32,784 bases of DNA from an uncultured Gammaproteobacteria bacterium (lineage in GTDB: Bacteria; Patescibacteriota; Microgenomatia; Levybacterales; UBA12049), in assembly GCA_964364925.1 (NCBI GenBank), contig CAYIOB010000002.1, forward strand, positions 1 through 32,784, written 5' to 3'. A program made the position numbers and the translations under genes. Positions 19,538 through 23,201 of this stretch are shown piece after piece. How positions within the stretch are numbered: the stretch's first letter is position 1; each line of letters starts with the position of its first letter. The notes under the pieces were generated by a model. The model was not told the origin of the DNA. It searched no databases and was given only the letters and a program-made list of their open reading frames with translations.

Positions 19538-20128
19538 TTAGACGTCCTCTATATAATACCTTACTTCTTCTCTCTCGGGGTTTAGTAAATTATAAAGATA
19601 GGTTATGTCAGAATCGGAATGCCGGACACAACCCGAACTCCCTAAGTCTTCTTTTGAAAGCTTTGAAAGGTTTCCATTTATTCCGTGGAGACCGAAATAT
19701 CCCGGCAGACTCCAGTTGCATTGCCCATTACACTCAGCATAAGGATTTGGTCCGAAAGGCTCTTCTTCTGTTACCGGAACATCCAGGGTTAGAAAATATG
19801 GTGCGGTTTCTGGGTTGTCGGCTGAGCTTTCTTTTTTGGTAATAAGCCAGAAATCTCTTCTCAAAAGCTTTGGCAAAGGTGTCGGGCTTATGGACAAATT
19901 ACCTGTCTTAACTTGAAAAGTTTTTAAAAGCCGGCTATTATCTTTATCGCCAAAAACGCCATAATATAAATATTCAACATTTGATTTTCTATGAAGAAGA
20001 AGCCAATAATGTTTTTGCGGTATAATGGCGTTGTGCTTTTGCATAAGCTCTGGCTTAAAAGCAAACCAGCCTGAAAATCCTACTAGGATTAAAATTAAAA
20101 CAGCCAAAAGTAAAACTTTTTTTTGCAT
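19538..20128 (-). CDS. L,D-transpeptidase (YkuD domain) with N-terminal membrane anchor
   Basis: Catalytic motif LHGINGN....GSSGCVRH. Start set to the ATG at 20128 (MQKKVLLLAV...) rather than 20167. Confidence 0.78.
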   Translation of the reverse strand: MQKKVLLLAVLILILVGFSGWFAFKPELMQKHNAIIPQKHYWLLLHRKSNVEYLYYGVFGDKDNSRLLKTFQVKTGNLSISPTPLPKLLRRDFWLITKKESSADNPETAPYFLTLDVPVTEEEPFGPNPYAECNGQCNWSLPGYFGLHGINGNLSKLSKEDLGSSGCVRHSDSDITYLYNLLNPEREEVRYYIEDV

Positions 20129-21277
20129 ATGGAGTATTCTAACAAAAATATCGCAAATATTGAACAAACTGAAAAACCTAAGGGCAAACGAAAACTTTTC
20201 GCTGTTCTTTTTTTATTAGTGCTCATTACCGCTATTGGTGTATCATGGTTTTTCCTTCAATCGAAACTTGAACAGCCAATCGTCAGTAATCAGCCGTCAA
20301 TAATCAGCTCTTCGCCCTCTCCTACCCCCTACGCCTTACCGCCTATCCCCTCGGGTAGGGTTTTAGCGACCGACTATCACATTTTCCAAACATTTAACAA
20401 TTGCGGACCGGCTGCGCTTTCAATGGCCTTACGATTTTATGGAATTAATGTAAGCCAAGCAGAACTTGGAAATGCACTGCGCCCCTATCAGGTTGCGGGA
20501 GGAGATAATGATGATAAATCAGTAACTTTAGAAGAGTTAGCGGAAAAAAGTAAAGAATATGGATTAATACCATATCATCGTCCGGCAGGAACACCGGAAC
20601 AAGTTAAATATTTTATTGCCAATGATATACCTGTTATTGCCCGGACTTGGACAAAACCTAATGAGGATATTGGTCATTACAGAATTATAAAGGGGTACGA
20701 TGATCTTCGCGGAGTTTTTATTCAGGACGATTCTTTGCAAAATAAAAATCTTGAATACACTTATGAAGATTTTAATGAGATATGGAAAAAATTTAATTAT
20801 GAGTTTTTAGTCCTTGTTCCTCCGGATAAAAAAGAAATAGCAGATGCTATCTTAGGGGAAAATGCCGATGAAAAGACTGCTTGGCAAAAGGCTGTTGAAA
20901 ACTCGGAGATTGAGCTTAACAAAAATCCAAACGATACATACGCTAGGTTTAACCTTTCTGTCGCCTACTATAACGTTGGGGATTACAAAAGTTCAACGCG
21001 TGAATTTGAAAGAATCGAAGGCTTACTTCCCTTCCGCACCCTCTGGTATCAGATAGAACCTATACAAGCTTATTATGAACTAGGAAATTACGACAGAGTT
21101 TTTGCCATAACCGACAAAGTTCTCAACTACCACAATCGCGCCTTCTCAGAACTTTATATTTTAAGAGGTAAAATTTATCAGAAACAAGGAAGAACCGATG
21201 AAGCCCGCGCGGAATTCCAAAAAGCGTTTCTGTATAATACAAACTTAAAAGAAGCTCGTGATTTACTAAATTCCTAG
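20129..21277 (+). CDS. Membrane-anchored C39-like cysteine peptidase domain fused to TPR repeats
   Basis: FNNCGPAALSMALRFYG (C39/BtrH-like catalytic Cys context), HYRIIKGYDD, C-terminal TPR-like repeats (ARFNLSVAYYNVGDY..., ILRGKIYQKQGRTDEA). ATG at 20129 is preferred over the TTG at 20123. Confidence 0.78.
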   Translation: MEYSNKNIANIEQTEKPKGKRKLFAVLFLLVLITAIGVSWFFLQSKLEQPIVSNQPSIISSSPSPTPYALPPIPSGRVLATDYHIFQTFNNCGPAALSMALRFYGINVSQAELGNALRPYQVAGGDNDDKSVTLEELAEKSKEYGLIPYHRPAGTPEQVKYFIANDIPVIARTWTKPNEDIGHYRIIKGYDDLRGVFIQDDSLQNKNLEYTYEDFNEIWKKFNYEFLVLVPPDKKEIADAILGENADEKTAWQKAVENSEIELNKNPNDTYARFNLSVAYYNVGDYKSSTREFERIEGLLPFRTLWYQIEPIQAYYELGNYDRVFAITDKVLNYHNRAFSELYILRGKIYQKQGRTDEARAEFQKAFLYNTNLKEARDLLNS

Positions 21278-21297
21278 CTTTCGTCCACTCCTAATGA

Positions 21298-21996
21298 CTA
21301 AGCTGCTGCGGGAAGAGCCTGAAATTGTTCTCCCTGAGATTTTAAAAGAGGCATTTTTTGAATTTCCCCGATTAATTGAACGTCAAAAAACCGAGCCGGA
21401 TCAGCACCCTTCCGCCTGTCCTTCTTTGGAATTTTTACACGATCTTCTCTTAATAGGCAGTATGCGTCTATTTGTTCCTGGCTGAGGGCAATTTGTTGCT
21501 CCGGCGGTAAGGGTCCCCCGGGCCCCAGGGGGTTATTGTGTCTATAAACAAAGCCTTCTGCTTGTGATATTGTTGGTTTATGAATCTTAATTCTTTCTCT
21601 TTCATCGGGTCTTCTTTGCAATCTTTCCACCCTTGCGATGATAGCTCTATGTAAACCCTCACTGAGTCTTCCGCCCGCATCGCGATATGCAGCAAATCCA
21701 TTTTTTAATCTGGTTTCTTTGGCGGCAAAAGCAGCTTTTCTTCTTTCCTTCTCGGCAAAAGTAACCCAATCGATAGAACCTACTTTATCTACTAATCTTG
21801 GTTCACGTAATGAAACTGGTTTTCCTTGCTCTAAAATAATTTCAGGGACGACTACAGGGGCTTGAGCTTCAAAGGGAGCTGGCGCTCGCATGCCTGGATC
21901 TTTATCACAAGATAAAGCCATAATTTGATATTCAACTATTGCTTGTGAAAAGTCAATAGGTAAATCCTTCGACGTAAGTGTATCAAAAAATATCAT
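21298..21996 (-). CDS. Hypothetical protein (about 232 aa), orphan; Arg/Pro-rich and visibly G+C-richer than its flanks
   Basis: The ORF lies entirely inside the segment bracketed by the duplicated TPR-gene 3' end. The track start at 22005 is a TTG inside a TTGACA; the ATG at 21996 is used here. No domain recognised. Confidence 0.45.
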   Translation of the reverse strand: MIFFDTLTSKDLPIDFSQAIVEYQIMALSCDKDPGMRAPAPFEAQAPVVVPEIILEQGKPVSLREPRLVDKVGSIDWVTFAEKERRKAAFAAKETRLKNGFAAYRDAGGRLSEGLHRAIIARVERLQRRPDERERIKIHKPTISQAEGFVYRHNNPLGPGGPLPPEQQIALSQEQIDAYCLLREDRVKIPKKDRRKGADPARFFDVQLIGEIQKMPLLKSQGEQFQALPAAA

Positions 21997-22037
21997 TCCT
22001 GTCAAGACTATAGGTTATCTTGAGTTTCTCCTGACTT

Positions 22038-22109
22038 GCCGAATTCCAAAAAGCGGTTTTATATAACTCGGGTCTAAAAGAAGCAAAGAACTTACTTTCT
22101 GCTATTTAA
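22038..22109 (+). pseudogene. Orphaned, diverged duplicate of the last ~23 codons of the C39-TPR gene
   Basis: It translates to AEFQKAVLYNSGLKEAKNLLSAI*, versus AEFQKAFLYNTNLKEARDLLNS* at 21208-21277. It contains a 15-nt identical core, gaattccaaaaagcg, and an in-frame TGA lies just upstream. Confidence 0.65.
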
Positions 22110-22114
22110 GATAT

Positions 22115-23161
22115 CTATCGAAAAATTCTACTGATCTTTGCCGCTGCTATACCAAAATTTGAAGCCATATTATGGTCATCACCCGGATATGTATATAACT
22201 CTACTGTTTTCCCGGCCTCCTGCATTTGCTTTTCCAAAGTTTGTGAAAACTCTACAGGGACTGAGATATCAGCAGTTCCATGATGAAGCTGAATTGGCCC
22301 TGAAATATCTTTTAGGAATGAATTAGCAGAAAGACCGTTCCAAAAAGTTGGATTCTGGGAAGGTTCTCCAAACTGCACTGATAAAGTTTGCCTCCAGCTT
22401 CCTCCCCTAGTTGACGGAGTGGGGGTTGCGGAGAGGGCTCCGGATGGTGCCCTTCTCCTCCATCTTTCAAAAAGATCCTGATATGAAACTACAACTCCGG
22501 CCCAGATAACACCTGCTTTTATATCTTTGTTTACCACCATTGCTCTAAGAGTAATAAACCCTCCCATTGAATGTCCCCACATGCCAATTTTTTGAATATT
22601 AACTCCTGGATATTTTTTTAAAGACGCAAGAGCGTTTAAAACATCAATCGTATAACCGTTTGATCCATAAGCTCCTGATGGATTTCCTTCTGAATCTCCA
22701 TGTCCTCTGTAATCTGGTCTAAGTAAAATATATCCATTTCTTGAAAATGCATCTGTATAAGCAATATATCTTTCAGTTGTTCTATATTGTGCGGGTGGAA
22801 TATATCCATGGTTAAAAACAATTGCCGGGAATCCCTTTTCTGGCGGCGTACCATTTGGAACAGTAAATAAAGCATATATTTTAAGACCTTCTGATAGGTA
22901 CGAAACAATGTATCTTTTGTAGTTACTGCCTGGTGTAAGAGTTTCTTCAATTACCAAATCGCTTCCAGGATAATTTCCTTTTTTAAGCGCTTCTATTGAA
23001 AGACTGAATGGTTCTTCTTGCATCTCTCCACCCATATTGTCTGTAAAATCTGTTTGGGGAGAAGTATTTAACTTTGAGATATCATTGTATTTTGAATATA
23101 CAAAAACCGCGGAGAATAATATAAAAATTAAAGCTAAAAATATTACCTTACTTTTAAACAT
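22115..23161 (-). CDS. Membrane-anchored alpha/beta hydrolase (S9-like), paralog of 18424-19536
   Basis: FPAIVFNHGYIPPAQYRT and GMWGHSMGGF parallel the paralog. ATG at 23161 is preferred because TGcTATAAT sits 6 nt upstream; the track start is 23179. Confidence 0.85.
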   Translation of the reverse strand: MFKSKVIFLALIFILFSAVFVYSKYNDISKLNTSPQTDFTDNMGGEMQEEPFSLSIEALKKGNYPGSDLVIEETLTPGSNYKRYIVSYLSEGLKIYALFTVPNGTPPEKGFPAIVFNHGYIPPAQYRTTERYIAYTDAFSRNGYILLRPDYRGHGDSEGNPSGAYGSNGYTIDVLNALASLKKYPGVNIQKIGMWGHSMGGFITLRAMVVNKDIKAGVIWAGVVVSYQDLFERWRRRAPSGALSATPTPSTRGGSWRQTLSVQFGEPSQNPTFWNGLSANSFLKDISGPIQLHHGTADISVPVEFSQTLEKQMQEAGKTVELYTYPGDDHNMASNFGIAAAKISRIFR

Positions 23162-23178
23162 TAAAAAATTATAGCACA

Positions 23179-23201
23179 TTCCCCTTTTTGCTTCTTGTCA
23201 A
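23179..23201 (-). promoter_or_regulatory. Motif copy D: TTGACAAGAAGCAAAAAGGGGAA upstream of the second hydrolase
   Basis: Matches the 17219/18390 motif at most positions and is followed by TGcTATAAT. Confidence 0.5.

Follow-up and report, generated by a model that had tools for sequence, protein, structure and literature searches.

A candidate 829-bp single-gene cassette at the 3' end of a C39-peptidase/TPR gene in a Patescibacteriota genome and its counterparts in related lineages

The 3' end of a gene encoding a C39-like peptidase with TPR domains (hereafter, the C39-TPR gene) is duplicated in the genome of a Patescibacteriota bacterium of the order Levybacterales, and a single gene, referred to here as the cargo or orphan gene, lies between the two copies. 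The gene is located in a stretch of 32,784 nucleotides, the window of this study, which corresponds to contig CAYIOB010000002.1 of assembly GCA_964364925.1. We favour, with moderate confidence, the reading that a Campbell-type crossover at a short core sequence brought an 829-bp one-gene cassette into the 3' end of the C39-TPR gene; the crossover would have been catalysed in trans. The window is contig C2 of an 832-kb metagenome-assembled genome (MAG) that consists of 87 contigs and has a G+C content of 37% (0.374) and an estimated completeness of 89.6%. It was compared with a set of 245 genomes of the same order of the candidate phyla radiation (CPR). In the following description, G000 denotes the window's own genome, other G-numbers denote genomes of the comparison set, and L-numbers denote loci or contigs.

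The C39-TPR gene (20123–21277, forward strand) encodes a protein with an N-terminal membrane anchor and matches to Pfam Peptidase_C39_2 (1e-13) and to TPR families. The gene ends in ...AEFQKAFLYNTNLKEARDLLNS and a stop codon, and its last 22 codons, designated T1 (21212–21277, forward strand; EFQKAFLYNTNLKEARDLLNS and stop), form the 3' end that is now used. The second copy, which translates as AEFQKAVLYNSGLKEAKNLLSAI and stop, lies downstream in the same orientation, and its portion from the core onwards, designated T2 (22041–22109, forward strand; EFQKAVLYNSGLKEAKNLLSAI and stop), is untranslated. Both T1 and T2 begin with an identical 15-nt core, GAATTCCAAAAAGCG, which encodes EFQKA and forms an attL-like junction on the left (21212–21226, forward strand) and an attR-like junction on the right (22041–22055, forward strand); the site motif is also written as CCCGAATTCCAAAAAGCAG. 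At the nucleotide level, the direct repeat (21209–21255 and 22038–22084) spans 47 nt with 77% identity and a start-to-start distance of 829 nt. The tail and the second copy gave a protein score of 77 in a BLOSUM62 local alignment, as compared with 35 for the best unrelated place in the six frames of the window, and the tblastn E-values for the tail were 1.8e-4 and 2.4e-7 (in a small database). By these scores, the tail repeat is far above chance, which removes the concern, raised in a first-pass annotation made from the sequence alone, that the similarity of the second copy might be spurious.

The other elements of the arrangement reported in that annotation were also confirmed. A TGA codon is present in frame two codons upstream of T2, and the TAA codon of T2 (22107–22109) is located 5 nt before the stop codon (22115–22117) of a convergent gene. 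This gene (22115–23179, reverse strand), the native downstream neighbour, encodes an alpha/beta hydrolase of the S9/S33-like type (Pfam Hydrolase_4 and Peptidase_S9). The only long open reading frame (ORF) between the two copies is on the opposite strand (21298–22005), and it is followed towards the right core by a cassette-side junction segment (22014–22040), the length of which differs among related cassettes. No terminal inverted repeats or hairpin is present at the cassette ends, where the direct repeats share the identical core. The orphan ORF had also been described as G+C-richer; for the insert, this holds only mildly relative to the genome (0.42–0.45 versus 0.374), and the neighbouring genes reach 0.45–0.46.

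Comparison with related genomes revealed which of the two ends is native. In G081, which belongs to another genus of the same family, the C39-TPR tail (...EFEKAVFYNSNLEEAKNLLSAI and stop; ...EAKNLLSAI) abuts a hydrolase gene that is orthologous to that of the window (79–84% amino acid identity). The C39-TPR gene also directly abuts the hydrolase gene in G244, G076, and G020, and the stop-to-hydrolase distances in the four genomes are 17–51 nt according to the tblastn coordinates. Empty sites, for which a search had been proposed, are therefore present in related genomes. From T2 across the 5-nt spacer and into the 3' end of the hydrolase gene, the window aligns to G081 with approximately 85% identity, and the alignment begins at the (C)GAATT of the core, to the left of which the window has cassette sequence where G081 has the gene body. 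The tail nearest to T2 is the functional tail of G081 (84% identity), and 6 of the 11 substitutions between them, as counted by hand, are synonymous, which fits the view that most of the divergence arose while both tails were functional. The nearest tails to T1 are those of L018 (78%) and G084 (77%), both of which are next to orphan homologues, and not that of the empty-site relative G081. The 3' half of T1 and the spacer behind it are identical to L018 at 45 of 53 positions, and in L018 the same tail adjoins an orphan homologue; the homology between the window and L018 stops at 21212. Because T2 is nearest to the G081 tail and aligns with G081 from the core onwards, and because T1 is nearest to the orphan-linked tails, sequence comparison identifies T2 as the displaced native end and T1 as the end that arrived with the insert. 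These results support the proposal of the first-pass annotation that DNA was inserted into the gene end and brought a replacement for it. However, the pattern also fits a recombination-based 'C-terminal displacement', and a mobile element is not the sole reading. Sliding identity analysis of the gene body against 14 relatives detected no clear switch of the nearest neighbour, and the left border of the imported DNA therefore cannot be placed upstream of the core.

C39-TPR orthologues were found in 73 of the 245 genomes. Downstream sequence of at least 1.4 kb was available for approximately 36 orthologous loci of the order. A second tail is present downstream of the gene in three of them (G000, score 77; G084, 79; G085, 72), and the remaining loci (approximately 33) scored 37 or less. 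In at least six other genomes or contigs of the order, other cargo genes, including unrelated ORFs and a FabD-like gene, are joined at the same core. At least six mutually unrelated flanks on the cassette side join the target no more than 2 nt from the left edge of the core. The remnants of G000, G084, G085, G183, L121, and L127 begin at the EFQKA core, and L091 also has its junction at the core. The exact core is present in nearly all remnants, whereas other codons (e.g. GAATTTGAAAAAGC) occupy this position in most of the order's tails that are attached to a gene.

The individual loci differ in structure. In G084 (also represented by contig L102), the gene and its tail are followed by a convergent 217-aa cargo and a remnant (TEFQKAVFYNFNHPEANDLLDSV and stop), and the hydrolase gene is located a further 5 kb away. 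The G084 cargo shares the promoter and the N- and C-terminal modules of the orphan but has another body. In G085, an unrelated 256-aa ORF on the same strand comes after the gene and its tail; behind this ORF lie a remnant (QFQKVVLYNTNLQEARDLLSGV), a palindrome, and, last, a copy of the core alone. A metagenome scan for the core yielded L091, L109, and L119, as well as L121, which consists of a tail, a 190-aa cargo with an orphan-type promoter, and a remnant, and L127, which consists of a tail, a FabD-like gene of 320 aa, and a remnant starting at cTATTCCAAAAAGC. The L127 cargo (1011–1985, with the locus reversed) encodes a FabD-like malonyl-CoA:ACP transacylase and stands alone between the tail attached to the gene and the remnant. 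From its ATG to the remnant there are only 27 nt, too few for a promoter of its own.

G183 contains one 45-codon gene fragment (C12) and one core-starting remnant (C20), each of which is followed by the same 26-nt palindrome. This perfect palindrome, TGTATGATATATCGATATATCATACA, is identical on L068 (G183:C12, 2559–2584) and L069 (G183:C20, reverse strand), in each case behind a different tail fragment. Behind the L127 remnant lies a similar palindrome. The G183 palindrome is probably the native bidirectional terminator. In G095 (L057, which is G095:C69, 37–545), a 134-aa ORF is located between two 21-nt direct repeats, CCCCGAATTCCAAAA[AG]GCAGA, that are 486 nt apart. The same motif constitutes the core-only copy at G085 R2 and the left junction of L018, and the G095 ORF looks like a cassette bounded by core-only sites. 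The L018 sequence, a Logan contig, ends in an Illumina adapter (ACACGACGCTCTTCCGATCT, the last 20 nt), and the real sequence before the core is only 19 nt there. A search for the 14-mer core across the order gave 38 matches, and those outside the C39-TPR loci, G095, and G183 are all in unrelated chance contexts. In G025 (L003, which is G025:C4, 578–1489), the gap between the C39-TPR and hydrolase genes is filled by a HicB/HicA-like toxin–antitoxin pair and a 140-aa EamA-like membrane gene.

If the duplication were an inherited feature, relatives would be expected to share it with both copies under purifying selection, a possibility that the first-pass annotation had considered. G084, G085, L121, and L127 instead differ in cargo and contain decaying remnants, and the duplicated tails of the relatives, as judged by sequence, are not an orthologous conserved pair. 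The same core has been used repeatedly in related CPR genomes by cassettes with other cargo, with displaced tails and core-only repeats stacked downstream, and the C39-TPR 3' end appears to be a recombination hot spot.

In the reading that we favour, the cassette comprises the core, 22 codons that replace the old tail, a cargo gene in convergent orientation, and the cargo's own promoter. The sequence shows that the gene now reads into the imported tail T1 and that the native tail T2 has been displaced by 829 nt to a place beside the hydrolase gene, where it persists as an untranslated remnant. The cassette would have entered as a circle through one crossover of the Campbell type in the core. 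The core itself is duplicated and has unrelated DNA at its left edge, which argues for insertion of the Campbell type. Because no cassette encodes a recombinase, the crossover would have been catalysed in trans, either by a site-specific recombinase of the host or of a helper or by short-homology recombination. The cassettes may later have spread among lineages by ordinary homologous recombination, with the gene body and the tail serving as arms. The statement of the first-pass annotation that the insert lacks an integrase or transposase held true: no integrase, transposase, or nuclease was found in it, its single ORF has no Pfam, PHROG, or PADLOC match, and the cargoes of the other loci are likewise devoid of recombinases.

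Several observations weigh against this scenario. No recombinase is encoded in or beside any cassette, and only a near-universal, housekeeping-like pair of Xer-like tyrosine recombinases is present elsewhere in the genomes (on contigs C8 and C70 in G000). Neither an attP site nor a circular form was detected in the window's own genome, viral contigs, phage or plasmid records, or genome collections. The gene-attached core copy of G084 differs at two positions. Furthermore, the homology of the L109 and L119 remnants starts approximately 15 nt before the core, and that of the G183-C12 remnant starts approximately 45 codons upstream of it. In G193 and G180, small genes are located between the same two genes without any duplication of the tail. 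Finally, within a single cassette family, the stretch from CCTATAG to the core measures 26 nt (window), 22 nt (G084), or 8 nt (L121), a spread of lengths that does not match a fixed attP arm.

A bolder version of this scenario, which we offer only tentatively, is that CPR bacteria possess an integrase-less, integron-like docking system. A core of approximately 15–20 nt in the last codons of a conserved envelope gene would be a fixed site at which single-gene cassettes are inserted, stacked, and exchanged by a host recombinase, such as the resident Xer-type pair. The host gene would stay intact because coding sequence that mimics its tail comes with every cassette.

The main alternative, which we regard as possible but not as the probable explanation, is C-terminal displacement without dedicated machinery. 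DNA from a related lineage with a different downstream gene would have recombined homologously within the conserved gene and been joined on the other side by illegitimate or short-homology events, that is, by homology-facilitated illegitimate recombination (HFIR), so that the old tail was displaced; the core would merely be the longest conserved nucleotide block near the gene end. Such displacement has been proposed for the tips of Rhs proteins and for the effector–immunity arrays of the Vibrio type VI secretion system (T6SS) (Kirchberger 2017, PMC5361080; Jackson 2009, cited in PMC5361080), and the published model yields the same outcome (PMC5361080). The replacement tails all resemble genuine C39-TPR tails of one lineage or another, and the interval between the C39-TPR and hydrolase genes is generally variable, as exemplified by the HicAB-like pair and membrane gene of G025, the 5-kb distance in G084, and the duplication-free genes of G193 and G180. 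Remnants that start upstream of the core and cassette-side junctions of varying length also fit this explanation. In addition, T2 looks mildly chimeric: its first 38 nt are nearer to L018/L020 (33 of 38 positions), and the rest is nearer to G081 (29 of 31). However, this model does not readily explain why the junctions of six or more unrelated flanks all lie 2 nt or less from a single position, or why core-only repeats without tail homology flank the G095 ORF. Anchored HFIR would normally be expected to merge, rather than duplicate, the anchoring core, and HFIR is an infrequent event in the experimental work to which PMC5361080 refers.

It is very unlikely that T2 is a maintained silent cassette with which the gene end is switched by gene conversion or inversion, as in pilS/pilE or shufflons. 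All eight remnants examined do keep an open, tail-like frame of approximately 22 codons. However, each locus contains a single silent copy, with no recombinase and no inverted repeats, and approximately 33 of the 36 orthologous loci have no second copy. Conserved residues have been lost in the remnants (e.g. YNSGL, YNFNHPEA, and LYFFNL), the stop codon of G085 R1 has been lost, and T2 is orthologous to the functional G081 tail.

Diversity-generating retroelements (DGRs) are common in CPR genomes, and a near-copy of a gene 3' end located downstream is a hallmark of these elements, in which a variable repeat at the gene end is paired with a downstream template repeat. Nevertheless, the T1/T2 mismatches are of all kinds and are not limited to the adenines of one copy, and neither a reverse transcriptase nor Avd is present, the cargo being without any Pfam match. 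T2 also has a functional tail as its orthologue. A DGR is ruled out by the spectrum of mismatches and by the missing reverse transcriptase. An assembly chimera or collapsed repeat, to which the fragmentation of the MAG into 87 contigs and the breaks of L121, G095, and G183 contigs at the core might point, is comparably negligible as an explanation, because window positions 20395–22114 were reproduced by an independent Logan contig (L131, run ERR3858122; 1,720 nt, 99.94% identity, one mismatch) that spans both junctions, which shows that the arrangement is no binning or assembly artefact, and other genomes have the same architecture.

Other classes of elements were also considered and rejected. 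The insert is not an insertion sequence (IS), transposon, or miniature inverted-repeat transposable element, as it has no terminal inverted repeats and is single-copy and the window's own genome has no IS30-like gene. Genes for IS30-family transposases (HTH_38 and rve) are present in L018 (54–1066, beside the orphan cassette and apparently frameshifted) and in L119 (2735–3718, 0.5 kb from the remnant). These are the only IS30-like genes near cassettes, and because they are diverged from each other (33–38% identity) and absent from the window's own genome, they are probably bystanders in a variable region. A free-standing homing endonuclease was rejected because no LAGLIDADG, GIY-YIG, HNH, or PD-(D/E)xK signature was found in Pfam or structural matches and the cargoes differ between loci. 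An integron cassette was rejected for want of an attC-type imperfect palindrome and of IntI at the platform, only the Xer-like pair being present elsewhere. Capture of restriction fragments at GAATTC fails to explain the site specificity, because this sequence is abundant in the genome (301 sites) and not avoided (observed/expected ratio, 0.88).

The locus resembles several known systems without belonging to any of them. As in the Rhs/contact-dependent inhibition (CDI) systems and T6SS arrays, a conserved gene gains a new 3' tip and, with it, a companion gene downstream, while former tips shift further downstream and build up there as orphans. No integrase is evident, and the junctions cluster at a short conserved coding motif. 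Unlike in Rhs/CDI, however, the host gene encodes a C39-peptidase/TPR envelope protein and not a toxin, and the tip is a 22-residue TPR-capping helix that is moderately conserved across orthologues and contains no toxin domain. In addition, the companion genes are convergent and heterogeneous (the orphan family, FabD-like, and others) rather than cognate co-directional immunity genes, and core-only repeats also occur. The direct repeats flanking the insert, which consist of a shared core and a functional copy of the gene end, and the empty sites in relatives recall integrative elements that target gene 3' ends and bring a replacement end, as well as their derivatives without an integrase, namely cis-mobilizable elements (CIMEs) and the degenerated elements with partial tRNAs in tycheposon islands (bioRxiv 10.1101/2020.12.28.424599). 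Here, too, each new insertion at the site moves the earlier ones outward, and incomplete copies stay behind. In contrast to CIMEs and tycheposon islands, however, the target is a protein-coding tail and not a tRNA gene, the unit is only 0.8–1 kb with one cargo gene, and no version carrying integrase or replication genes was found in any collection searched.

As in integrons, the units are stackable, each has one ORF and one recombination site, the chromosomal site is fixed, and the enzyme is not encoded by the cassette. This likeness to integron cassettes in size and logic is promoter-independent. Unlike in integrons, there is no IntI next to the site, no attC-like imperfect palindrome, and no GTTRRRY core; the recombination site doubles as the coding sequence of the host gene tail, and the window cassette has its own promoter. 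In fungal mitochondria, mobile endonuclease ORFs such as that of Allomyces atp6 reportedly supply a C-terminal coding end of foreign origin, and the resident end stays behind as a downstream remnant. The order of gene, new 3' end, mobile ORF, and old 3' end is the same in both cases, but the inserted ORF of Allomyces is a recognizable homing endonuclease, whereas here there is no nuclease signature and the cargoes are mutually unrelated. With no pair of toxin tip and immunity gene, no tRNA target, no integrase, and no attC, the locus belongs to none of the compared families. It is best described as a hot spot in a CPR envelope gene for one-gene cassettes that lack an integrase and contain coding sequence mimicking the tail of the host gene.

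Bacteria of the CPR (Patescibacteria) have tiny genomes with few recognizable mobile elements and no cultured genetics, and their gene acquisition is poorly understood. The locus represents a concrete and repeatable route of gene acquisition, in which one short coding motif has received different single genes in different lineages and the host gene has each time been kept intact by the imported tail. If a trans-acting enzyme is responsible, the locus would represent a minimal cassette system that might offer a means of inserting DNA into CPR organisms. If recombination alone is responsible, C-terminal displacement would extend beyond toxin genes, and stranded gene tails could mark past gene flow in MAGs.

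The cargo gene (21298–21921, reverse strand) encodes 207 aa from the ATG at 21921. A longer frame begins at a TTG (22005) inside the promoter, and because this TTG falls within the -35 box, the ATG at 21921 is the likely start. The promoter and leader (21922–22013, reverse strand) contain a sigma-70-like promoter with TTGACA (22005–22000) and TACACT (21982–21977) boxes, a 17-nt spacer, and a scan score of 10/12. A palindrome, CTATTG-N12-CAATAG (21936–21959), lies between the promoter and the ATG and may be an operator or a leader hairpin. The promoter, the palindrome, and the first approximately 50 codons are kept in all eight cassettes or relatives, some of which have a wholly different ORF body (G084/P0014, L121, and P0012). 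Over the 45 nt around the start and palindrome (21917–21961), the identity to L016 and L017 is 95%, as compared with only approximately 78% for the genes.

The cargo family is tiny: a set of 5.8 billion proteins contains 7 clusters of it, and a set of 1.84 billion contains 8 representatives. Its pairwise dN/dS values of 0.3–0.6 indicate a real, fast-evolving gene. The orphan gene is single-copy in the window's own genome, and the further copies of the insert or its ORF that the first-pass annotation had suggested seeking were not found there. Apart from a match to the N-terminal module in G084, no orphan gene was found in the 245 genomes of the order, and no relatives were found in GTDB species genomes, JGI metagenomes, IMG/VR, or phage or plasmid records. 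The orphan relatives that occur in other contexts (L016, L017, and L019) are not surrounded by flank duplications. No function could be assigned to the cargo by Pfam, PHROG, PADLOC, or PDB profile searches. In the AlphaFold model, the N-terminal approximately 50 residues are disordered, and residues 73–195 form a helical domain (predicted local distance difference test score, 72–89) that had no fold match in Foldseek searches against PDB and BFVD.

The family members (P0002–P0014) end in -AA or a close variant (LPAAA, LPVAA, IAAAA, TLAA, and REAA; 21298–21312 in the window). Such ends resemble ssrA-type ClpXP degrons, which is a lead only, and because of this resemblance the cargo protein is probably short-lived. 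It would be a regulated cytoplasmic protein. All members also contain an invariant mid-protein Gly-Gly within (Y)(R/Q)xAGG. The Gly-Gly cargo protein is encoded beside the gene for a C39-type (double-glycine) peptidase.

Exact-protein look-ups of the hydrolase and the C39-TPR protein for alternative alleles found neither of them on record. G001 and G002, which belong to the window's genus and are 94–97% complete, contain neither a C39-TPR homologue nor a YkuD match, indicating that the cluster as a whole is not conserved within the genus. In the window, the C39-TPR and YkuD genes are arranged head-to-head, with their starts within CATATG (20123–20167).

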